DNA from: a virus
DNA length: 45,497 nucleotides
Virus genome (UHGV): UHGV-0106598
Direction: 5' to 3' (one strand)
Program-made: the position numbers and the translations under genes
In this document: piece after piece, positions 5,896-29,536 of the stretch
Numbering within the stretch: position 1 is the first letter of the stretch
Layout: each line of letters starts with the position of its first letter
The notes under the pieces: model-generated
The model's input: only the letters and a program-made list of their open reading frames with translations
The model's database searches: none
What the model was told of the DNA's origin: nothing

Positions 5896-6324
5896 CTATT
5901 TTGTCTGGTTTTTGGCTTCAAGTAGTTCTTTTAGCAGTAGATCGAAGTGCTCTCTTTTTTCTTTTAGCTCATTGATTAGTTTATTTTTTTCGCTCTCAGG
6001 CAGTCCTCTGAATAGTTGCAGTAGAGCCTGTTCTTGTGGGGTTAGTTCTTGATTGTAATTACCGGGGTGTAGCGTGGATTCATCCAAATATTCTCCTTCA
6101 TTCATGAAGAAAAAATGAACAGGGTATCCGGTCACTTTTGCTAGCTTGTCTAATTTATCTTTTCTTGGCGTTACCCCATTACACCATGCCTGAACTGATT
6201 GAGCTGTAACCCCAATATGGCGAGCTAACTCAGATTGAGACCAGCCTAAGTCTTTTAGAATCCGTTGTAGTCGGCTAGCAAAAGCCATGTTTTTCGTTTT
6301 TGTGTTCATACCGTAAGGATACAA
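5896..6324 (-). CDS. Phage repressor, CI-like HTH (XRE-family) DNA-binding protein with no recognisable LexA-like S24 peptidase domain
   Basis: HTH segment GWSQSELARHIGVTAQSVQAWCNG; divergent from a Cro-like gene; C-terminal half is helical/charged, lacking the Ser/Lys peptidase signature. Start codon ambiguous (three candidate Met). Confidence 0.7.
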   Translation of the reverse strand: MYPYGMNTKTKNMAFASRLQRILKDLGWSQSELARHIGVTAQSVQAWCNGVTPRKDKLDKLAKVTGYPVHFFFMNEGEYLDESTLHPGNYNQELTPQEQALLQLFRGLPESEKNKLINELKEKREHFDLLLKELLEAKNQTK

Positions 6325-6325
6325 G

Positions 6326-6387
6326 GTTTAATTGTAGGGAGCATTGCAAATATAATTTGTAATTACAGTTATGATTTGTAATGATGG
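6326..6387. promoter_or_regulatory. OR-like operator/promoter region between divergent repressor and cro-like genes
   Basis: Seen in sequence: TTAATTGTAGGGA, TAATTTGTAATTACA and TGATTTGTAATGATGG repeats in a 57-bp divergent intergenic region. Confidence 0.5.
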
Positions 6388-7437: not shown

Positions 7438-8444
7438 ACATCCTCCCGTTACTTGATAGACCCATAGCCTTCCAGAGAAGTTTTATCCGTCTTGAAATTG
7501 GCGTGACTGCCGCATTGTTTCTGTCGCAGTTGACGTACTGGACAAACAGAACAACTGACGACGGCTGGGTATATAAAACCCAGGATGAGTGGGAAGAGGA
7601 AACAGGGCTTTCACGATACGAGCAGGAGGGCGCACGCAAAAAACTACGTGGTCTCGGCATCTTGCTGGAACGTAAACAGGGCTTGCCTGCCAGGCTATAC
7701 TACAAAATCGATAATGATGTGTTGTGCCAGCTACTTACGTCCGCACACAAGGATGCGGAAAAACCACATACAGGTGAGGGGAAAACCACCAGGCCTGTAC
7801 GTGGAAAACCAACAAACATTCTTACAGAGAATACAACAGAGAATACTACAGAGATTATAGATCCCCCTAACCCCCAGGGGGGAGACGGCGACGAGACCAT
7901 TCTCGCTGATGCTCAAAAAGCACTGGCTAGTTACAACGAGCAAACCAACACGCGTTGTCGCGACGTTAAACCGTTCGTTACGCTGCTGACTCCGACAAAA
8001 ACGCGAACCGGTTATACCGTCGCGGAAATCGAACTGGTGATCCGCTGGGTGTTGGCAACGTGGCACCGTCGTAGCGGTAGTATGCCCAAAATCGCAAATA
8101 TTTGCCGTGTAGGACGCTTTGATGGCTACTTGGCTGACGCTGAGGTCTGGGCTGTCGCTGAGGCTGCTGTAGACCCCTCTGAGGTCGTTAACGGCTACAA
8201 CGAGATTTTCGCTGATTTACTGCCTGAGGCTGAAATCGACACAGACCGCCGCCGGGCGATCATGAAACTACTGGCACACATGCGGTCGCAAACTCTCGGG
8301 GCGTTCCTGGGGTATTTCGAAAAATTCCGTGATACCGCACCTGAATTTTATTTCGGTGGTGAGGATCGCGACGGCTGGCGGGCAGGGTTTGATTACCTGA
8401 TGAAACCGGAAACGCTGCGTAAAACCAGGGAGGGGGCATTATGA
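7434..8444 (+). CDS. Replication initiator / replisome organizer (lambda O-like winged-helix N-terminus)
   Basis: 336-aa ORF upstream of and overlapping the helicase gene; N-terminal winged-helix-like region; internal iteron-like repeats. Confidence 0.55.
   Translation: MNILPLLDRPIAFQRSFIRLEIGVTAALFLSQLTYWTNRTTDDGWVYKTQDEWEEETGLSRYEQEGARKKLRGLGILLERKQGLPARLYYKIDNDVLCQLLTSAHKDAEKPHTGEGKTTRPVRGKPTNILTENTTENTTEIIDPPNPQGGDGDETILADAQKALASYNEQTNTRCRDVKPFVTLLTPTKTRTGYTVAEIELVIRWVLATWHRRSGSMPKIANICRVGRFDGYLADAEVWAVAEAAVDPSEVVNGYNEIFADLLPEAEIDTDRRRAIMKLLAHMRSQTLGAFLGYFEKFRDTAPEFYFGGEDRDGWRAGFDYLMKPETLRKTREGAL
7824..7859 (+). repeat. Three tandem 12-bp iteron-like repeats (TACAGAGAATAC / AACAGAGAATAC / TACAGAGATTAT) inside the initiator gene; candidate replication origin
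   Basis: Seen in sequence; encodes TENTTENTTEII; followed by the G/C dyad CCCCCAGGGGGG. Lambda ori lies inside the O gene in the same way. Confidence 0.5.
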
Positions 8445-9832
8445 ATCCGGAAGAACTGGAAGCGATCGTTCTCGCTGGTCTGATTAACGGTGGCGCGACG
8501 CCTGACGCGTTTGATGTGATTGCCACCACTCCGGAGGAAGCCTTCAGCATCGTGTTTCACCGCCACGCTTTCAGCGAAATCAAAAAGCAGGCACTGGCGA
8601 ACGGCATGATCGACATATTGTTTATCAGCGAAGCGCTGGGCGGCTCCAGCCTTGCGGATCTGTCTCAGATATCCCGGATCCCGGCGACGGTACCGAATCT
8701 GAAAGGCTATGCCGGGAAAATGGTGCAGGCCTGGCGGAGCCGCAAAATGGCGGCATTGTTGCAATCTGGCGCGGACGGTATTCGTAACGCTGTAAACCAG
8801 AGTCAGCGTGATGAGGTTATTGAATCTCATGTTGCTCAGGTGCTGGATATGAGCGCCGCTACTGGCACAGCCCAGCCGGTACACATCAAAGAGCTGTTAC
8901 CGCTCTACATTGACACCGTTGATAAACGGATGTCTGGCGACGCGCAGGAAATGATGCTGAAAACCGGAATCGAGGATCTGGATGTCACCCTGGGCGGTAT
9001 CAACATGACTGACCTTGTTGTGGTTGCCGGTCGTCCAGGCATGGGGAAAACGGAATTTACCCTGAAGATTATCGATGGCGTTACCGCAGATGGCGGCGGC
9101 GCACTGTTTTTCAGCATGGAAATGGGCGCTCAGCAGATTGTTGAACGTACCGTTGCCGGGGCTGGGAATATGTCCTCATCGCGTCTGCGTAATCCAAAAG
9201 AAATGGACGATGAGGACTGGTCGCGATTAACCGCTGCGCTGGAGACTATGCAGGATCGCGATATCTGGATTGTTGATGCCACTGATTTGACGATTGAGCA
9301 GATCCGCGCCATTGCAGAGACTCATAAACGCCGTTATCCGCACCTGAAGTTGATTGGTGTTGATTACATGGGCCTGATCAAAAAACCGAAGGCCGAGCGC
9401 CACGATCTCGCTGTGGGGCATATCTCCCGCAACATGAAGACTATGGCTATGCGTCTGCATACCCCTGTTTTTGCTCTTAGCCAGCTTTCCCGCCAGGTGG
9501 ATTCTCGACCTGCTGGCCAGCGTCGCCCGGTGATGTCGGACCTGCGCGATTCCGGCAGTGTTGAGCAGGACGCTGACAGCATTTTGTTTTTGTACCGCGA
9601 TGAAGTTTACACACCTGATTCACCTGCAAAGGGTATCGCCGAGGTGATTATCGGTAAAAACCGTTCTGGCGGGGCAGGTGAAATTATTTATCAGGAATTC
9701 AGGAATGGGCATTTCCTGCCAGTTGATCAACACGTAGCACGCGAAAAATTACGCATCCAGAAGGAGGCAGAACAACCGAGAAAACGTGAAAAACGGTATT
9801 CAAACAAAAACTTTAATACGGACCCCTTTTAA
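8441..9832 (+). CDS. DnaB-family replicative DNA helicase
   Basis: 463-aa ORF; Walker A GRPGMGKT, Walker B-like LIGVDYMGLI, SQLSRQV motif typical of DnaB-type helicases. Confidence 0.9.
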   Translation: MNPEELEAIVLAGLINGGATPDAFDVIATTPEEAFSIVFHRHAFSEIKKQALANGMIDILFISEALGGSSLADLSQISRIPATVPNLKGYAGKMVQAWRSRKMAALLQSGADGIRNAVNQSQRDEVIESHVAQVLDMSAATGTAQPVHIKELLPLYIDTVDKRMSGDAQEMMLKTGIEDLDVTLGGINMTDLVVVAGRPGMGKTEFTLKIIDGVTADGGGALFFSMEMGAQQIVERTVAGAGNMSSSRLRNPKEMDDEDWSRLTAALETMQDRDIWIVDATDLTIEQIRAIAETHKRRYPHLKLIGVDYMGLIKKPKAERHDLAVGHISRNMKTMAMRLHTPVFALSQLSRQVDSRPAGQRRPVMSDLRDSGSVEQDADSILFLYRDEVYTPDSPAKGIAEVIIGKNRSGGAGEIIYQEFRNGHFLPVDQHVAREKLRIQKEAEQPRKREKRYSNKNFNTDPF

Positions 9833-11235: not shown

Positions 11236-11457
11236 ATGTTTGGCGATAAACTGGAGTTACCACGGAACGGGCGGATAGTGCTCTATATTTCAGATTACAA
11301 AGTAACCAGGGCTGAGGTGTTGGAACCGGAAAAACATCTGGTCACGTTACCGGACATTATTGAGTTGTATAAGCGGGTCGGATATGTGGACTTGCATCGC
11401 GATGATGTTCCCGTTGAGTGTATGGAATGTGAACACCGGAGGTTTGAAGTTGATTGA
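11236..11457 (+). CDS. Hypothetical small protein
   Basis: 73-aa ORF with GGAGGGAAAGG upstream of the ATG. Confidence 0.35.
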   Translation: MFGDKLELPRNGRIVLYISDYKVTRAEVLEPEKHLVTLPDIIELYKRVGYVDLHRDDVPVECMECEHRRFEVD

Positions 11458-11667
11458 ATTGACTTAGAAAAAGCCCGGGGCTATAGTTTCCGCGCAGCCG
11501 CAAAATCGGTTGCCGGGATTGCAACCCCGGATATCTAAGTGACGCATAGCCGCGTTAGCGGTTTTTTTATGCGTAAAGTACAGCTACATCTAAATTATGG
11601 TGGGCTGGGCAGGGCCATCGTAAGATGGGCCGGTTTCACTTAGGCCGGTTGTTGCAACCTTGTCCAG

Positions 11668-11710
11668 CTCACCACCCAATGATTGCAACCTGACGGTGGT
11701 GAGTTTTATC
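11668..11710 (+). terminator. Terminator/attenuator-like hairpin (CTCACCACC ... GGTGGTGAG, about 18-nt loop, then TTTTAT) just upstream of the ORF6N-like gene
   Basis: Seen in sequence: perfect 9-bp inverted repeat followed by a T-run; the same intergenic region has repeated TTGCAACC motifs. Confidence 0.45.
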
Positions 11711-11729: not shown

Positions 11730-12524
11730 ATGACAACTCAAATTTCCGCACAAACTCTTTCCCCAATCTCTCATCAAAATACGCTTGTCATCACCACCGA
11801 ATTGCTTGCACAACTGTATGGGACTGAACCAGTCCGAATTCGTCAAAACTACTCTCGTAATGAAGGGCGGTTTGTTGAAGGGAGACATTATTTTTTGGTG
11901 GAAGGCGATGAACTACGGGAGTTGAAACGCAAAGTATCTCAAAGCTACTCTGTGAAAATTGCCAAAAATGTACGTACTATCATTCTCTGGACAGAACGCG
12001 GCGCAGCTCGCCATGCCAAAATGCTGGAAACAGAACAGGCCTGGGAAGTTTTCGAAAAGCTTGAAGATTGTTATTTTAGCCAGCGTCCAGAGAGGCGGAG
12101 TACAACTACCGATTACCGTACTCCCTTACGTGATGCCGTTAATATGCTGGTCGGTAAGAAAGGCATGATGTATCCCGATGCCTACACCATGATTCACCAA
12201 CGTTTCGCCGTCTCTCACATAGAACAACTGTCACAGACGCAAATGTTAGAGGCGATTGAATACATCCACTGCCTGCTACTCGATGAAAATCAGCCAACCA
12301 TTCCAGATTTTTCTTTTATCACCACTATCAAAAATGGAAAAGTGACCGGGATGCGCCATGTTGCCAAAGGCGAACATCTGATGACCTTTGACGCTTTCAA
12401 AGAGATCGCTGAGCGGGCAGGGTATCTGGTGATCCACAGCGACAATCTGCGAAGTATGACACTGGATAAATTGATGGTAATGGGGAAAAAGTCGGCTATA
12501 TCCGTTGCTAATTCAGCATTTTGA
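11730..12524 (+). CDS. ORF6N/KilA-N-like domain protein (possible antirepressor-type regulator)
   Basis: N-terminal LVITTELLAQLYGTEPVRIRQNYSRNEGRFVEGRHYF ... ILWTERGAARHAKMLETEQAWEVFEKL resembles the recalled ORF6N pattern; own leader with a hairpin. Confidence 0.45.
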   Translation: MTTQISAQTLSPISHQNTLVITTELLAQLYGTEPVRIRQNYSRNEGRFVEGRHYFLVEGDELRELKRKVSQSYSVKIAKNVRTIILWTERGAARHAKMLETEQAWEVFEKLEDCYFSQRPERRSTTTDYRTPLRDAVNMLVGKKGMMYPDAYTMIHQRFAVSHIEQLSQTQMLEAIEYIHCLLLDENQPTIPDFSFITTIKNGKVTGMRHVAKGEHLMTFDAFKEIAERAGYLVIHSDNLRSMTLDKLMVMGKKSAISVANSAF

Positions 12525-12903
12525 CAGGTTGTTTGGGGCGGAAATACTCTATTTGCGCTTAGGATACTTGTTAGCTACTTCCACTTTTGTCACAAAGCGG
12601 ACTATCTGGCTGAGCTGAGGGTCCGCAGTGAGTGAGGATCGAATATTTAAGCGTCGGTACTGATGACGGATTTGAGGTATTTAAAATATTACAGGAGCTA
12701 GTGTGGATGTGACAGACATAAAAGTGGATGCAGTCAGAAAAGATATATGTATAGCAGGCTTCTTCGAGGACTAGATCAATCAATAAGATTTAGATAAAAT
12801 TGCAGTGTTAAATAAAAAGACTAGTAGTATTTAAACTTTAAGTGCGTTAGTAAAGTCGTGCAATTATATAAAACTAACGTTTTCTGAATGTTTGGAGAGT
12901 AAA

Positions 12904-13599
12904 ATGTTAGAACCGCCAAAGAATTATAATGAAATGTTACCCATGCTCCATAAGGCAACTTTTATTACTACATTTATATTTTACCTATCATTGGTTATTT
13001 ATGGCTACATACCATTGGTTGGCATTAATGCCAAGTACATTCCACCAATCAAAGACTACGAAGAATTTATTAAGTGGATATTAACATTCGGCATATTACC
13101 AATTGCATTCTCAATTTTTTGGTCTGTGATTAGTGGGGCTTTAGATCTACATAATAACGTGGCAAAAATTCTTGGAATAAGAAAAGCATGGGATAATTAC
13201 TTGATTGTTAAACCATTGGCGCAAGTTGCAGGCATTACAAGAAAATTAACTAGTGATGAATCCTCCAAAGTAATGAACAAACTGTATTACCCAGAAGTTA
13301 ATGAGTTAAAAGATAAACATTATGTTGAGCTCTTCTGGAATAAGGTTTATTACTTTTGGGTTTTCTTTGAACATACTGTGATTGCATTTATTACTGTTTT
13401 AGTAATAAGTTTTGCTAAAATAACCCATTTACTCTCTGTAACCGGTTCTTTAAAAAATCTTTGGTTGTGGGTTATTTTTATTGTTGTCTTTAATTTTCTT
13501 ATTTTTATTGCATCCGTTAAACCCAGAACTGAAGGCCAAGTCAGACAAATACCTGATGATAAGATAAAGGAATTTTTTAATAATAACAGTATTTTTTAA
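12904..13599 (+). CDS. Integral membrane protein (about 4 predicted transmembrane helices), unknown function
   Basis: GGAGAG ribosome-binding site before the ATG at 12904 (track ORF starts at an upstream non-ATG codon); four long hydrophobic segments; AT-rich codon usage; stop adjacent to the next gene's ATG. Confidence 0.5.
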   Translation: MLEPPKNYNEMLPMLHKATFITTFIFYLSLVIYGYIPLVGINAKYIPPIKDYEEFIKWILTFGILPIAFSIFWSVISGALDLHNNVAKILGIRKAWDNYLIVKPLAQVAGITRKLTSDESSKVMNKLYYPEVNELKDKHYVELFWNKVYYFWVFFEHTVIAFITVLVISFAKITHLLSVTGSLKNLWLWVIFIVVFNFLIFIASVKPRTEGQVRQIPDDKIKEFFNNNSIF

Positions 13600-14265
13600 A
13601 TGAGGTTAGTTTTGAATTACAAAATAAATGGAATGACTATACGTTCAGAAAATGCAGCAAAACCGCATACTATGCCATCTAACTATCTCTGTAACCATAT
13701 TGAAAATTCTGTTAAAAATGGCATGGCCCTTGATTTCGGATGTGGAAAGCTTAGATATTCAGAACAATTAGTAAATAAATTTGAAGCTGTGACATTTTTA
13801 GATTCCAGAAAACAGTTAGAAAGAGTGCAAATTATCAGAGGCGTACAAACCACAATTCCAGAGTATGTGGCTAATAATTATAAAAATGCTAATGTTGTCC
13901 CTTTTGAAAGTATAGATAAAATAAAAGATAATTATGATTTCATACTTTGCGCAAACGTGCTTTCCGCAATTCCATGCAAATCAACAATTTACAAAATCAT
14001 CAATGAGATTGGGAGATTATTAAAAAATGATGGTGAAGCAATTATTGTTAATCAATACAAAAGCTCTTATTTCAAAAAGTATGAGACTGGAATTAAACAT
14101 TTGCATGGATATATATACCAAAACTCTCGCAATGCTTTCTATTATGGCTTATTGGATGAGAATATTGTAAGTAAAATTTGCTTAGATAACAATTTAGCAG
14201 TAATAAAGTCATGGAGCAAAGCTGGCAGTTCATATGTGGTTGTTGGTAAAAATAAACATAATTAG
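13600..14265 (+). CDS. Class I SAM-dependent methyltransferase-like protein (small-molecule/RNA/protein type, not a typical DNA methyltransferase)
   Basis: Motif I LDFGCGKL, acidic residue about 17 aa later (FLDS), motif DFILCANVLSAIP; no DPPY/NPPY-type DNA methyltransferase motif seen. Confidence 0.5.
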   Translation: MRLVLNYKINGMTIRSENAAKPHTMPSNYLCNHIENSVKNGMALDFGCGKLRYSEQLVNKFEAVTFLDSRKQLERVQIIRGVQTTIPEYVANNYKNANVVPFESIDKIKDNYDFILCANVLSAIPCKSTIYKIINEIGRLLKNDGEAIIVNQYKSSYFKKYETGIKHLHGYIYQNSRNAFYYGLLDENIVSKICLDNNLAVIKSWSKAGSSYVVVGKNKHN

Positions 14266-14592
14266 TAAATTTAAAAATAATATTAGAGGGTGCCATTTTC
14301 TTATTACTTATTAACTCGCTGGGGTAGGGGCAACACGCCCCACCTCATCAAGTTACTGCAGGATTATAGACTTTTGTCAAAACGTTGGAAAAATTCAGTA
14401 CAAACTTTTCCATGTTTTTCCTAATCATAGATAATGATGCTCACTTATGTTAACAACTTCTTGTACATAACGGTCTTCTTCAACAGGACAGCTATAAGTG
14501 AAGAAATAAAGTCGATAAACAATAAAGAGGCTCCAAATAAATATTATTCAATGAAGCCTGCTGTTTATTATTTGTTATTATTAAATCGCTAC

Positions 14593-15492
14593 TTATAATT
14601 CAACAATTTTTAGTATTATATCAATATTATTTAGCCTTGCAATCTCTGATGAATCGTTTGCAATTTTATCTTTTAAATTATCAATGTTAATCATATCTTC
14701 AGAGCTAATACAAACCATATCACCTTGGTTAACTTTTGATTTGTTCACTATGGCTTGAATAACAGACAGATCGTCCATTACACCTCTCAGGAATTTAACC
14801 ATGCTTTGATCCTTGAAATCAGATATCGATTTTGAACGTTGCTTACGTTGGATTGTTCCTTTTGTAATTATTTCGTTAATTTCTTTTAAACCGGCAAGCA
14901 TATCAGATATGCTTCCTTCGCAACTCATCCTGTGTTTAATAGCATTGCGATTAATAACATTGAGTATTATTTCGAGTGAATCTCTATCATCCCATGGCGA
15001 TAATAATGTATAATCCTGATGGCGATGAATGGCATCAAGCATATCAAGGATCATATTTTCATCTGCTTTATCGCAAAGTTCATTTACAAAATAGCTGGGG
15101 TCGATTACTTTACAATAACTTGGAACTGAGCATTTTGAGCTTTTACAAAACCCAAAAATATATAAAAAAGGGTATATGTCTTTTAGACTCTTTCCTGATT
15201 TATTTTCTTTTTCAAAGGCTGCGATTGTTTTTTTAATTTTTGCCGGGGTTGCTTTCGTTGTAACTTGAACTGCTATCATGTTTTTATTGTCAGCTAAATC
15301 AATGGCGGGAAAGTTAACTTTAATCTGATTCATGTTTTCCAGTCCCCCCATTTTCAGTGCGCGAAACATATAAATGGTCAATGACTCAATCATTCTTTCC
15401 ATGTCATGAAAGCCAGTCTGTTTGCGTTGTTCGATATAAAGCTGAAGTAGCGCAATATCTTTCTGTAAGTTACTAATAACTGGGGCAATCAT
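14593..15492 (-). CDS. Hypothetical protein with an Rx4H (HEPN-like) motif; candidate abortive-infection-type RNase
   Basis: 299-aa ORF with AAGGA ribosome-binding site; RNAIKH at residues 182-187; N-terminal NFPAIDLADNKNMIAVQVTT region resembles what I recall of SMEK-type N-terminal domains (tentative). Confidence 0.45.
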   Translation of the reverse strand: MIAPVISNLQKDIALLQLYIEQRKQTGFHDMERMIESLTIYMFRALKMGGLENMNQIKVNFPAIDLADNKNMIAVQVTTKATPAKIKKTIAAFEKENKSGKSLKDIYPFLYIFGFCKSSKCSVPSYCKVIDPSYFVNELCDKADENMILDMLDAIHRHQDYTLLSPWDDRDSLEIILNVINRNAIKHRMSCEGSISDMLAGLKEINEIITKGTIQRKQRSKSISDFKDQSMVKFLRGVMDDLSVIQAIVNKSKVNQGDMVCISSEDMINIDNLKDKIANDSSEIARLNNIDIILKIVEL

Positions 15493-16025
15493 AGCTAATA
15501 ATCCTTTTCAATTAAGTAGGGGATGTGTTTGAGCTTCTTTATTTGACTGTTAGTTTAATTTCTTGTTTTCATATTAACAAGCTCTACAATTTTATCAAGA
15601 TTTCTCAAAAACTAATCCTCCGTGTAAATCCACTAACTATGCTGAATTTATTCCGCTGTAAAACATGTCCGCTCATGGCTGTGAGTTCAACGGGTCGATG
15701 CAACGCCATCCACTCAGTAAAATTGTGTAATTCCAGTGAGCAGGCGAATCTTCAGTATGCTCTAGTTTCTTACTCACACCTGCTTATGCTTTAACTAGGT
15801 ACAATGTAGATAAACTCTCATGTTGATTTATCGCCATGATCACATTTCCGGAAGAAAAATTTTGTTTGTAACCTTGCTAGATGAGACAGTATAGATATCA
15901 TTACATATGAAACAGTACATTAGGGAACACTGAAGGCCGTAACTTTAAAAAATATAATTAATTGTACATAATTTTATAACAATCAAGATGGTGGCAATTA
16001 TATAAGTAATAATAAGGGGTGATTA

Positions 16026-20343: not shown

Positions 20344-20586
20344 AGTGATTCCTCATGATATAAAGACCCAACAATATAAATTACCAGGCACATCATAAGA
20401 TAGGGTTCCAGCCCATATTTTCAAATATTTGCAAGTATCACCGTTCAGTCTAAAAAGTTGGATGATGATTTAACGAGCCATAACAAAACCCTGCCTCGGA
20501 GGTTTTTTCTTTTTTATAGAACTCAGCGGCGTGAAAACGAATAATAAATTGTGCAAATAATGCAATTTTTATTATTCGAGGTAATT

Positions 20587-21228
20587 ATGAAAACCTTCTA
20601 TGAGGGCTGGCCTGAAACTTTCGTTAGCCGGTTAGATATGTTACGGGCGTTGGATGATCGCGGTTCGACCCGGAGGCTCTATCTTGAGCGGACCGGAGCA
20701 ATATTTGACGCTCTGGCAGAAGAGATACGTACAGCCGTTGCCGGGCACCCTGAAATCGATGTGAGTAAACTCGATATCGGGCCGCTGTATCGCTATTACA
20801 AACGTGGAGAAAAGGGGAATTCGCTGGCTGACTTACTTATTAATTTGGCTCCACCAACCTGTAAACGAGTTCGTATATCCCCTGAAGTGTACACAATCCC
20901 GTATCTGTTTTTTGCACTGTTGATAGCGCAAGGCGCTGACAACGATGCCCGCGATTTTTTCAATATGATGATGCGACCGTTAATCATTGCTTACCGTTTC
21001 AAACAACTGGCGCGCTACCTTGGCACGAAGGGCGGAGGACGGCCACAGCACAGATTAAAAAGCGAAGCCATTGAACTGGCTGATCGTTTTTTTACTGAAA
21101 ACCCGACAGCGCCATTATCGCGTGGTGTGCAATACATATCCGGTATTTTTGTGGCGAAATACTCTGACCCACCTGCAGCGTCGACGATTAGAAAATGGTT
21201 AATTTCAATTTACAGGAGTGATAAATAA
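20587..21228 (+). CDS. Hypothetical protein
   Basis: About 213 aa from the internal Met (MKTFYEGW); no recognised motif. Confidence 0.4.
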   Translation: MKTFYEGWPETFVSRLDMLRALDDRGSTRRLYLERTGAIFDALAEEIRTAVAGHPEIDVSKLDIGPLYRYYKRGEKGNSLADLLINLAPPTCKRVRISPEVYTIPYLFFALLIAQGADNDARDFFNMMMRPLIIAYRFKQLARYLGTKGGGRPQHRLKSEAIELADRFFTENPTAPLSRGVQYISGIFVAKYSDPPAASTIRKWLISIYRSDK

Positions 21229-21341
21229 TGACCATAAACGGTTTAATCCCCTATAAAACCGTTTAATAAAATTCACGACGTGAATATAATTGTTCATTAT
21301 TCCCTCATTGTATCTGGCGTTATGACAAATGCCATAAAATA

Positions 21342-21357
21342 CTGTATAAATATACAG
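21342..21357. promoter_or_regulatory. LexA (SOS) box CTGTATAAATATACAG overlapping a sigma70-like promoter (TGACAA - 16 bp - TATAAA)
   Basis: Seen in sequence: perfect CTGT-N8-ACAG palindrome with AT-rich spacer, 22 bp upstream of a small ORF. Confidence 0.6.
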
Positions 21358-21379
21358 GTTATAGCATTAGGGGGAAGAC

Positions 21380-21559
21380 ATGAATATTCAAGAATCTATA
21401 GGCGAACTACCGGAAACATGCCGGGCTGTTATCAAGCGTAAGGACGGACACATCGTTGGTGTGCGTGTTCTGACCGATGATGAGCGGATTGCCAGCCTGA
21501 TGGCGTTTCTCGAGTTGGCAGAAATAGCTGGATATACTATTACACCCCCTGACGCGTAA
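21380..21559 (+). CDS. Small protein (59 aa) behind the LexA-box promoter; candidate SOS-inducible antirepressor-type gene
   Basis: ORF MNIQESIGELPETCRAVIKRKDGHIVGVRVLTDDERIASLMAFLELAEIAGYTITPPDA, below the 60-aa cutoff of the supplied track; GGGGGAAG ribosome-binding site. Function is inferred from context only. Confidence 0.4.
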   Translation: MNIQESIGELPETCRAVIKRKDGHIVGVRVLTDDERIASLMAFLELAEIAGYTITPPDA

Positions 21560-21636
21560 AACACGGTATAATATCGGTGCTGGATTGAACACCCGGCACC
21601 ATTTTCTGAACACTGCCGCGCCACCTGGAGTTAACC

Positions 21637-22233
21637 ATGGCGCAGCATTCATTTATCAGGGTATCCGGCGGTTCGCTAATACCCGCGACACCAGACACGC
21701 AACGCTGGTTGACTGAACGAGTCAAACCAGGTGCTGTTGTGTATGCAGATTTCAAACAGGCACGCAATCCCGCGTTTCACCGTAAATTTTTCTCACTTCT
21801 CAACCTGGGCTTTGATTACTGGCATCCGTCCGGAGGGGCTATTTCTCCTGCGGAGCGCGAACTGGTTCACGGCTACGTTAAGTTACTGGCGTATTACGGT
21901 GGACACGGTGATGTCATGGCAGAGCTGGCTGATCAGTATCTTCTCGATGAGTCGGAAAAGCGCGCGGGGAATATCAGTGCGGTGAAGTCGTTCGAGGCGT
22001 TTCGCGCATGGGCGATTATGGAAGCTGGGTTTTATGACGTTCATCAGATGCCAGACGGCAGTTTGATGCGCGTACCTCGTTCAATCTCGTTTGCTGCGAT
22101 GGACGATCTTGAGTTCGGTCAACTGTATTCAGCCGTTTTAGATGTGCTGTGGAATTATATTTTGTTCCGCACGTTTGCCTCTCAGGAGGCCGCTGAAAAT
22201 GCTGCCGCGCAGCTGCTGGATTACACATCATGA
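21637..22233 (+). CDS. DUF1367-like lambdoid phage protein
   Basis: 198-aa ORF at the nin-region position before the YbcO-like and Q-like genes; family assignment from recalled pattern only. Confidence 0.4.
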   Translation: MAQHSFIRVSGGSLIPATPDTQRWLTERVKPGAVVYADFKQARNPAFHRKFFSLLNLGFDYWHPSGGAISPAERELVHGYVKLLAYYGGHGDVMAELADQYLLDESEKRAGNISAVKSFEAFRAWAIMEAGFYDVHQMPDGSLMRVPRSISFAAMDDLEFGQLYSAVLDVLWNYILFRTFASQEAAENAAAQLLDYTS

Positions 22234-27732: not shown

Positions 27733-27965
27733 TGACGTCGCGCGAGGTTTTAACAGAACGACTGCTGGAAGCGGAAATCGCTCTGCACAAATTATTAACG
27801 GGTAAATCGACCGTGTCGCTGTCTCACGGCGATTCAGCAGGAAATAACCGGAGCTATCAATACTCGCAGGCGAGTATTGAGCAGCTCCGAACGTACATTA
27901 TCGAGCTGAAATCACAGCTCGGTCTGAGTACGGGACGCCGTCGGCCCGTGGGAGTTCGATTATGA
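27732..27965 (+). CDS. Head-tail joining protein, lambda gpW-like
   Basis: 77-aa ORF; LHKLLTGKSTVSL ... EQLRTYIIELKSQLGLSTGRRRPVG parallels recalled lambda W. Confidence 0.8.
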   Translation: MTSREVLTERLLEAEIALHKLLTGKSTVSLSHGDSAGNNRSYQYSQASIEQLRTYIIELKSQLGLSTGRRRPVGVRL

Positions 27966-29536
27966 CTGCTCCGCAGCAGCTGCTCGGGCCTGACGGTAAA
28001 ACGCCACTACGCCGTTACGCGGGGTATAACGGCGGCGGTCCCGGTTTCGGTGGCCAGCTGATTGACTGGAACGCACCACAGCAGAGCGCCGACGCAGCAC
28101 TGTTGCCGAATTTTTATCGCGGTAACGCGCGAGCAGACGATCTCGTTCGCAATAACGGCGTCGCGTCGAACGCCGTGCAGCTGCACCAGGATCATATCGT
28201 CGGCAATCTGTTTAAGTTGAGTTATCGCCCTAACTGGCGTTACCTCGGCATATCTCGCGAGGACGCCAGGGCGCTGGCGCGTGACGTCGAGGTAGCGTGG
28301 ACTGAATACGCCGAGGACCCTCACTGCACGATTGATATCGAGCGGAAACGGACGTTCACAATGATGATCCGCGAGGGCGTGGCTACTCACGCTTTCAACG
28401 GTGAAACCTGCGTACAACCAGTCTGGGAGAGTAGTGCCGGCAGCGTTTTTCGGACGCGATTCAAAATGGTCTCACCGAAACGGATTCGAAATCCGGGTTA
28501 CGCAGCTGACACTCAATTTCGCCGCGCCGGTGTTGATATCGATAAAAACGGGGCCGCGGTCGGGTACTGGATAGCCGAGGATACTTACCCTCTCGGCGGA
28601 GTCGGTAAATGCCGGCGTATCCCAGCATAGCTCAGCAGCGGCAGACACGCATTCATCCACATATTCGAGCCGCTCGAGGACGGACAGACCCGCGGGGACA
28701 ATATTTTTTACAGCGTCATGGAGCGCCTGAAAATGCTCGACACACTGCAGCAAACACAACTGCAGAGCGCCATTGTGAAGGCGATGTATGCCGCGACAAT
28801 CGAATCAGAGCTCGACAGCCAGCAGGCGTTTGAATATATCGCCGGCGCGGGTACTGATATCGACTCGAACCCGCTGAATTCGTTTATTCAGAGTTACGTG
28901 ACGTACTACAACGGCGCAAATATCAAGCTCGGTGGTGTGAAAGTTCCCCACCTGCATCCCGGCGACAAACTCAGTTTACAGACCGCTCAGAATGCTGATG
29001 CTGGTTTTAGTTCACTGGAAAAATCACTCCTGCGTTACGTTGCAGCTGGCGTTGGCGCGTCATACGAAGAACTTAGCCGGGACTACAGCCAGGTCAGTTA
29101 CTCCAGCGCCCGGGCCAGTGCTAACGTCAGCTGGCGATTTTTCATGGGGCGTCGACGTTTTATCGCCGCGCGACAGGCGTCGCTGATGTTCTGCTGCTGG
29201 TTTGAAGAGGCGCTGGCACGCGGAATTATCACCCTGCCACGCTCAGCTGTCCGGTCGTTTTATGAGGCGCGGAACTCCTGGACGAACGCGCTCTGGATCG
29301 GCGCTGGTCGCATGGCGATTGATGGGCTGAAAGAGGTTCAGGAGAGCGCCATGCGCATCACAACTGGCCTCAGCACGTATCAGAACGAACTGGCGCTGCA
29401 GGGACAGGATTACGAGGAGGTTATGGAGCAGCAGGAATACGAAATTCAGCGCCGGCGTGAAATGGGGCTGAGCGAACCGTCATGGTCTGTATCTCACCCC
29501 TCAAATACCAACGATAACGGCTGGGGAGGTAACTGA
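27962..29536 (+). pseudogene. Portal protein gene (lambda gpB-like) interrupted by one in-frame TAG at 28628-28630
   Basis: Track ORFs 27962-28630 and 28718-29536 are in the same frame; translation right after the TAG continues LSSGRHAFIHIFEPLEDGQTRGDNIFYSVMERLKMLDTLQ, matching recalled lambda gpB (FIHVFEPVEDGQTRGANVFYSVMEQMKMLDTLQ) with no other stop. Confidence 0.85.

Follow-up and report, generated by a model that had tools for sequence, protein, structure and literature searches.

A predicted LexA-controlled member of the GfoA/FsoA/Rem antirepressor family in an Escherichia coli prophage

How can DNA damage induce a prophage whose repressor cannot cleave itself? The question is raised by a short locus in UHGV virus genome UHGV-0106598, a sequence of 45,497 nt (referred to here as the window, to which coordinates refer unless another locus is named) that derives from an Escherichia coli prophage with a lambdoid early region and a contractile P2-like tail. 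At this locus, a predicted LexA operator overlaps the promoter of an open reading frame (ORF) for a protein of 59 amino acids (aa). Our conclusion is that this 59-aa protein is probably a LexA-gated antirepressor that lifts a non-cleavable, DicA-type repressor upon SOS induction, and that its gene very probably couples the prophage to the SOS response; both statements are predictions from sequence comparison. The elements of the locus are listed below.

21322-21327, + strand: -35 element ATGACA (5/6 matches); TTATGACA is invariant in 12 related loci.
21340-21359, no strand assigned: putative LexA operator (SOS box) TACTGTATAAATATACAGGT, with 17/20 consensus matches.
21345-21350, + strand: -10 element TATAAA (5/6 matches), recognized from sequence and conservation, 17 nt from the -35 element and within the LexA box.
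21369-21377, + strand: ribosome-binding site AGGGGGAAG, of which GGGGGAA is kept in variants.
21380-21559, + strand: gene for the 59-aa Rem/GfoA/FsoA-family protein WP_001025459.1, the candidate antirepressor (ATG at 21380, TAA at 21559).

The original prediction for this locus, made from the sequence alone, placed a perfect LexA box at 21342-21357. The core CTGTATAAATATACAG is at exactly those positions and is the sole CTGT-N8-ACAG in the window. This core is not rare by itself: the expectation is 0.34 per window, and at least one was present in 28 of 100 shuffled sequences. The match of the 20-mer TACTGTATAAATATACAGGT to the LexA consensus TACTGTATATATATACAGTA extends to 17 of 20 positions, and such a match was found in none of the 100 shuffles. 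Scores were obtained with an approximate position-specific scoring matrix, built from 25 E. coli SOS boxes known from the literature, whose sequences may contain small errors. With this matrix, the site scored 24.8 bits, a value not exceeded by 22 of the 25 training sites, and the runner-up 20-mer in the window scored 10.3 bits, which is under the weakest training site (14.6 bits). Judged by these scores, the predicted site is as strong as bona fide SOS boxes.

The box was also predicted to overlap the -10 element of a TGACAA/TATAAA promoter, and this holds with a spacer of either length, as the promoter can be read as ATGACA-17-TATAAA (10/12 matches) or as TGACAA-16-TATAAA. The promoter was not listed by a consensus scanner because the last base of the -10 hexamer is A, not T. 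Box and promoter are located 22 nt 5' of the ORF, where the putative operator would control transcription of the candidate antirepressor. The box, the -10 element and the -35 sequence TTATGACA are kept in all 12 contigs that include upstream DNA (L005-L016). In three of these 12 contigs the protein is only 75-76% identical and both the leader and the spacer between the -35 element and the box have diverged; the retention of box and -35 element despite this divergence represents a phylogenetic footprint.

The ribosome-binding site and the 59-aa ORF were likewise found as described, and this ORF is a real gene. It had been called unlisted, and it is indeed absent from the ORF table supplied for the window, but it is annotated in RefSeq as WP_001025459.1, "hypothetical protein". 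The 441-nt locus from 21200 to 21640 is 100% identical to sequences in the chromosomes of strains EC28, A42 and ECO20. Close copies of the cassette are present in 445 of 5426 complete E. coli genomes (8%), including the prophage of many strains of sequence type 131 (ST131), e.g. EC958, and in 13 IMG/VR contigs. Between the window sequence and the 76% variant there are 16 synonymous and 14 non-synonymous codon differences, which indicates purifying selection. The gene encodes a small single-domain protein (59 aa; the family ranges over ~60-85 aa). Its place in this lambdoid prophage is outside the immunity region, 15 kb from the repressor gene, in the nin region 5' of DUF1367, DUF1364 and Q.

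The 59-aa protein was compared with antirepressors that have been tested experimentally. It falls in phrog_340 (E 1.6e-20), as does Rem of the E. coli K-12 cryptic prophage Qin (E 4.4e-21). Among 1.84 billion representative proteins searched with a profile, 38 relatives of ~60 residues were recovered, and the family motif is LP..GRVV...NG.V.S.R.L.DEH[IV]A[ST]L..F[IL]E[LM]A..AGY.[IV].PP. A hidden Markov model (HMM) built from 29 diverse family members matched FsoA, an ORF of Fels-1 (E 2.9e-16), Rem (2e-7) and GfoA-like proteins (28 bits). The Fels-1 ORF was identified as FsoA because the fsoA primers (Table S1, PMC3121763) map exactly to its ends. For GfoA, translation of the primers gives MSNSALQ... 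and ...RRLGYRVTPPSDI; no exact match to the gfoA primer sequence was present in IMG/VR, and blastn against phage records then gave Salmonella phage SEN34 and coliphage mEp237, which encode full-length proteins near-identical to GfoA. These SEN34 and mEp237 proteins share the C-terminal GY-x-[VI]-TPP motif with the window protein. When the subfamily of the window protein was aligned with an alignment of only GfoA-like and FsoA-like proteins using hhalign, the probability was 98% (E 2.6e-13) over 46 of 59 residues.

The similarity is largely confined to profile methods. Neither GftA nor Rem was matched by the 59-aa protein in BLASTP, and the relationship to Rem is therefore visible with profiles only. 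The protein was assigned to no family in scans of NCBIfam and of a Pfam copy that lacks PF27490 ("Rem"), a label that the newest Pfam has precomputed for relatives of the protein. A tblastn search of phage records returned one close and two marginal matches only. The AlphaFold (AF2) model has a mean predicted local distance difference test score (pLDDT) of 87 and consists of a short helix, a beta-hairpin (residues 15-21 and 24-31), a helix (40-49) and an extended tail; no meaningful structural match was found for it among solved (PDB) or viral predicted (BFVD) structures. Taken together, the homology to the tested members GfoA, FsoA and Rem supports the placement of the 59-aa protein, by sequence, in the GfoA/FsoA/Rem family of small antirepressors.

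The same data bear on whether the small protein might instead be directed at the host, as an SOS effector that, for example, modulates RecA in the manner of DinI or inhibits division. LexA-controlled cassettes of prophages often carry dinI, and the family has no function in Pfam, NCBIfam or PHROG apart from the PF27490 "Rem" label on some relatives. But the protein has no match to DinI in Pfam, and the Gifsy DinI homologue belongs to phrog_189, not phrog_340. With homology to three tested antirepressors as well, we give a host-directed role hardly any credence.

The position of the gene matches that of known antirepressor genes, and the elements that follow or precede it are as follows.

21237-21265, + strand: stem-loop AAACGGTTT...AAACCGTTT, directly after the stop codon of ORF 20551-21228; the region folds with z = -4.1.
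21576-21600, + strand: conserved hairpin GGTGCTGG-ATTGAACAC-CCGGCACC, followed by ATTTTCT, recognized from its fold and from eight loci.
21637-22233, + strand: DUF1367/irsA homologue (Pfam DUF1367, E 2e-78), 57% identical to STM2620 of Gifsy-1.

Gifsy-1, SEN34 and mEp237 have terminator-like palindromes followed by a LexA box, dinI, the antirepressor gene and DUF1367/irsA, and the palindromes preceding the Gifsy LexA boxes have been reported (PMC3121763). The Gifsy DUF1367 gene was identified as irsA because the irsA deletion primer pp644 matches its start. The window has the stem-loop first, then the LexA box, the 59-aa ORF, the hairpin and DUF1367, and after these DUF1364, Q and the lysis genes, so that the 59-aa gene occupies the place of gftA or gfoA in the Gifsy phages. 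The operon order dinI-antirepressor-irsA differs only in that dinI is missing from the window. This is a variant layout with no bearing on function, and by gene order the window holds the Gifsy cassette minus dinI.

As the DUF1367 gene starts only 77 nt past the stop codon of the 59-aa ORF and Q is within 1 kb, we considered whether the LexA promoter chiefly serves DUF1367, DUF1364 and Q, in a late or recombination function, with the small ORF as a leader peptide or accessory. The LexA-controlled Gifsy operon is reported to include irsA/DUF1367, and read-through is plausible because most of the homologous hairpins lack a U-tract. However, the hairpin in the window is followed by ATTTTCT, a mosaic joint divides the ORF from DUF1367, and the ORF, which shows purifying selection, belongs to a conserved family that includes experimentally tested antirepressors. 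Furthermore, genes other than DUF1367 follow in L023, L025 and K-12 Qin (rem). A promoter that exists mainly for the downstream genes is thus very unlikely, though somewhat less so than a host-directed effector.

The second component of the proposed switch is the repressor.

5896-6288, - strand: presumed target repressor of the DicA/GfoR type, 130 aa with the start annotated in RefSeq and 142 aa as the longest ORF, which extends to 6324.
6342-6383, no strand assigned: putative immunity operators, two 19-nt repeats, ATTGCAAATATAATTTGTA and ATTACAGTTATGATTTGTA, between the repressor gene and cro.

The original prediction held that the repressor at 5896-6324 has no autocleavage domain. This is borne out by the Pfam search, in which the product of 5896-6288 had helix-turn-helix (HTH) hits only (HTH_3) and no Peptidase_S24, so that the presumed cognate repressor lacks the S24 domain needed for RecA-stimulated autocleavage. 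It is 33% identical end to end to the Gifsy-1(LT2) repressor (E 6e-23) and 32% identical end to end to DicA (E 1e-17), and matches the NCBIfam DicA subfamily with E 1.3e-19, which is under the curated cut-off. It is a repressor of the DicA/GfoR/GtgR kind, with which it has a C-terminal LF..LPESEK motif in common.

Eight loci with distant homologues of the 59-aa protein (31-46% identical), from Raoultella, Edaphovirga, Yersinia, an Erwiniaceae genome and three other assemblies, provided a family-wide test. All eight are in lambdoid prophages, with the gene directly 5' of DUF1367 or Q. A LexA box (16-18/20 matches) is present in the upstream intergenic region of five (L022, L023, L026, L027 and L028), representing four of six lineages, and three of these five boxes are at -38 to -42, which is also where the window has its box. 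The chance expectation, extrapolated from the window shuffle count, is ~0.002 strict boxes per 300 nt. An HTH repressor of 131-154 aa is found in the flanks of six of the eight, with an adjacent YdaT-like gene in five of those six. No such repressor was seen in L025 and L029; L029 begins at a contig end and L025 looks like a remnant. The repressors have two kinds of HTH domain and a common C-terminal module, L..LF..LP[EQA][SA]E[KQ]...F..L..ELL, and every prophage whose available flank reaches the immunity region has a 131-154-aa HTH repressor bearing the LF..LP[EQA][SA]E[KQ] part of it. We infer that this module is most likely the docking surface for the antirepressor. As a separate observation, the Raoultella-type prophages contain a GC-rich palindrome, CTGTGACATGTCACAG, in the early-left operon (L022, position 978; L026, 2800; L027, 2751), which fits CTGT-N8-ACAG but not the AT-rich spacer of LexA sites.

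The sequence-level expectations raised by the proposal of a LexA-controlled small antirepressor, namely homology, slot, repressor type and a conserved box, have therefore all been borne out, and the mechanism would operate as follows. In the lysogen, LexA bound to the box over the -10 element and the transcription start would prevent synthesis of the 59-aa protein, and the short DicA-type repressor (5896-6288) would keep the early promoters off. After DNA damage, active RecA would lead to self-cleavage of LexA and the promoter would fire. The 59-aa protein would accumulate and bind the repressor, probably in a repressor2-antirepressor2 complex by analogy with that shown for GfoR-GfoA, and removal of the repressor from the operators at 6342-6383 would allow expression of cro, ydaT and the replication genes, and later of Q and the lysis genes. 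LexA binding, contact between antirepressor and repressor, and a requirement for the 59-aa protein in induction are the steps that we infer.

A number of observations weigh against this reading. The -10 hexamer ends in A, which makes the promoter non-canonical, and a second promoter-like site, TTAATA-16-TATAAT (10/12 matches), is found at 21263-21290, 50 nt 5' of the LexA promoter. LexA boxes are missing from the upstream intergenic region of the distant homologues in L024, L025 and L029, and none is visible upstream of K-12 rem. GftA, the Gifsy-2 antirepressor, has no similarity to the 59-aa protein that BLASTP or HMM searches could detect. WP_001025459 is mentioned in no paper in the literature. 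Co-variation of the protein with the repressor gave no signal, because recombinants break the pairing both ways: strain E62 has an identical 59-aa protein beside a repressor that is only 32% identical, and strain ETEC1738 has the 76% variant beside an identical repressor. The repressor and the 59-aa ORF do occur together in ~400 genomes, but these represent one clonal prophage lineage, largely ST131. GfoA is known to cross-react with heteroimmune repressors (PMC3121763), and the broken pairing would be compatible with such behaviour, but it lends no positive support to a specific pairing. Finally, the family HMM detected two more Rem domains in the window, and judging from their sequences these two proteins could be the real antirepressors or additional ones. 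They are listed here with two RNAs found in the same region.

11236-11457, + strand: 73-aa ORF, WP_000466605.1 (family HMM, E 3.5e-10).
11494-11568, + strand: isrK Hfq-binding RNA (Rfam, 76.1 bits, above the gathering score).
11593-11679, + strand: C4 antisense RNA (Rfam, 77.7 bits, above the gathering score).
11730-12524, + strand: ORF6N-domain protein with a Rem-like C-terminus at ~12318-12443 (family HMM, E 3.2e-10, 35 bits).

Neither of the two protein genes has a LexA box. The N-terminal domain of the ORF6N protein is 64% identical to Gifsy-1 AnrP, and the C-terminus of AnrP is itself weakly Rem-like (7.5 bits). The isrK and C4 RNAs sit between the two paralogues, directly 5' of the ORF6N/AnrP-like gene, an arrangement that matches the Gifsy-1 layout isrK-orf45-anrP (PMC4825925). 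By analogy, this looks like an RNA-controlled antirepressor module of the P1 immI or Gifsy-1 isrK-anrP type.

These findings bring in the most serious alternative, in which the SOS-induced antirepressor acts mainly in trans on the repressors of other prophages, as FsoA does on Gifsy-2, and the prophage is switched by another route, for example via the ORF6N-Rem fusion under the isrK- and C4-like RNAs. Members of the family are known to cross-react (PMC3121763), two heteroimmune repressors have each been seen alongside the identical protein, and the prophage contains both the two other Rem-domain proteins and the isrK/C4 RNA module. Against this, the window has a single LexA box, that of the 59-aa gene, and some SOS input is needed because the repressor cannot cleave itself. 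The syntenic LexA-controlled gene in the Gifsy phages is the cognate inducer, and the two paralogues are in the early-right operon, downstream of the promoter that is repressed, and so could not start derepression from that promoter. We consider trans-acting cross-talk as the main role unlikely, but it is the likeliest of the three alternatives, followed by a promoter for DUF1367 to Q and lastly by the host effector.

A LexA-gated antirepressor acting on the resident repressor remains our preferred reading, and it can be combined with the paralogues in a wider one. In this, the prophage would have a multi-input antirepressor network that uses one domain three times, in the LexA-gated 59-aa protein (SOS), the 73-aa paralogue, and the AnrP-like ORF6N-Rem fusion behind the isrK- and C4-like RNAs (RNA-gated), and the hairpin after the 59-aa gene would be a cis-regulatory RNA. 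We put this forward tentatively, as a reading that is possible but not probable.

The hairpin at 21576-21600 has a 5-bp stem and a nearly invariant loop, YCTGAACAN, and in most loci no U-tract. When aligned in eight loci, 100% of the stem cells pair and four of five stem pairs are compensatory; this covariation was reached by none of 500 shuffles and approached by no slid register. Hairpins of this type follow Rem/GfoA/GftA-type genes in E. coli, Salmonella, Raoultella and Yersinia prophages, and a similar one was read by eye after rem in Qin. Neither the hairpin nor the leader belongs to a family in Rfam. Relatives are located as follows.

L002, ~36627-36609: hairpin relative.
L003, ~8636-8619: hairpin relative.
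L018, ~2546-2564: hairpin relative.
L022, L024, L026 and L028, just after 10190: hairpin relatives.

The hairpin coincides with the mosaic joint, with sequences upstream 67-76% identical and those downstream 99% identical. It forms the 3' border of the cassette and may serve to terminate or attenuate transcription. At the other end, the stem-loop at 21237-21265 insulates the cassette on its 5' side. The ORF upstream of it (20551-21228, + strand) belongs to phrog_5215, which has no known function, and shows 67-70% identity in the variants whose small protein shows 75-76%; from these values the ORF and the 59-aa gene appear to behave as one exchangeable module. The spacer of the second promoter-like site contains a perfect palindrome, ATTCAC-GAC-GTGAAT (21271-21285). 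Its arms are kept in the 76% variants and its centre is variable. It was considered as an operator for the phage repressor, and this was rejected as it is unrelated to the immunity operators.

Further features of the prophage were recorded. A 41-nt stretch (9451-9491) in the replicative helicase gene (8441-9832) is a 95% match to features annotated as "CRISPR" in several E. coli chromosomes, which are probably spacers against this prophage family. The portal gene (27962-29536) is split into ORFs 27962-28630 and 28718-29536 and is a RefSeq pseudogene; because of the internal stop codon, the copy of the prophage in the window may not make virions. A cassette at ~12746-15680 encodes a SMEK-domain protein, a class I S-adenosylmethionine (SAM) methyltransferase and a hypothetical protein. 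It is also found alone, with ~83.5% identity, in many other E. coli chromosomes, and is located in a variable island between the replication and nin genes, where ST131 prophages have LprI, ImmA/IrrE and others.

If the preferred reading is correct, a LexA-gated antirepressor would explain how the prophage responds to SOS-inducing antibiotics (fluoroquinolones) despite an uncleavable repressor. If the wider reading also holds, the Rem domain would be a general repressor-binding module of both "small" and "large" enterobacterial antirepressors, and the YCUGAACAN hairpin would be an undescribed cis-regulatory RNA that sets the reach of SOS-driven transcription into the nin/Q region. Genes of the family were named "hypothetical protein" in every record inspected, and a rule combining the HMM with synteny could be used to name them.

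Among the known systems, GfoA of the Gifsy phages is one of the closest (PMC3121763). It shares with the window protein the family (28 bits for the SEN34 and mEp237 proteins; hhalign, 98%) and the C-terminal ...GY-x-[VI]-TPP-x-D, and its gene has the same slot directly 5' of irsA/DUF1367 in the nin region, a LexA box on its promoter, and a short GfoR/DicA-type repressor incapable of self-cleavage as its counterpart. The two proteins are only ~30% identical, and the window protein is shorter (59 versus ~80 aa), lacks the N-terminal extension and starts with ATG where GfoA has TTG. The window cassette also has no dinI between the LexA promoter and the antirepressor gene, and resides in an E. coli prophage with a contractile P2-like tail. 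FsoA of Fels-1 is the best HMM match among the tested antirepressors (E 2.9e-16) and shares the beta-hairpin and helix core motif GRVV..ENG.V...R.L.DDEH...L..F.E.A..AG, but it targets a foreign repressor, GtgR, and the repressor of Fels-1 itself is CI-like and cleavable (PMC3121763). GftA of Gifsy-2 (PMC3121763) is alike in slot, LexA control and the kind of repressor targeted, but it has no significant sequence similarity and belongs to phrog_4847.

Rem of the cryptic prophage Qin (PMC10448788) has in common with the window protein phrog_340, a slot 5' of Q-proximal nin genes, a target, DicA, that is 32% identical over its full length to the window repressor, and a similar TGAAC-loop hairpin after the gene. 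It differs in being 83 aa long, with an internal insertion or duplicated hairpin. Rem was shown to relieve DicA repression 165-fold, and its inducing signal was reported as unknown (Ragunathan et al. 2023, PMC10448788). As Rem-family genes at the same position in intact prophages are frequently under predicted LexA control, comparison of these loci suggests that SOS is the likely ancestral signal for Rem, and that the decayed gene in Qin has lost it.

Tum of coliphage 186 and AntC of N15 are not known to be related to the window protein, and come from unrelated phage types with unrelated immunity systems. The likeness is one of logic, in that LexA represses the antirepressor of a non-cleavable phage repressor (cited in PMC3121763 and PMC8044961). 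Both the mechanism and the protein family are already known (Lemire et al. 2011; Ragunathan et al. 2023; Pfam "Rem"), and the cassette is a further example of this known mechanism, in a dinI-less variant, rather than a new one.

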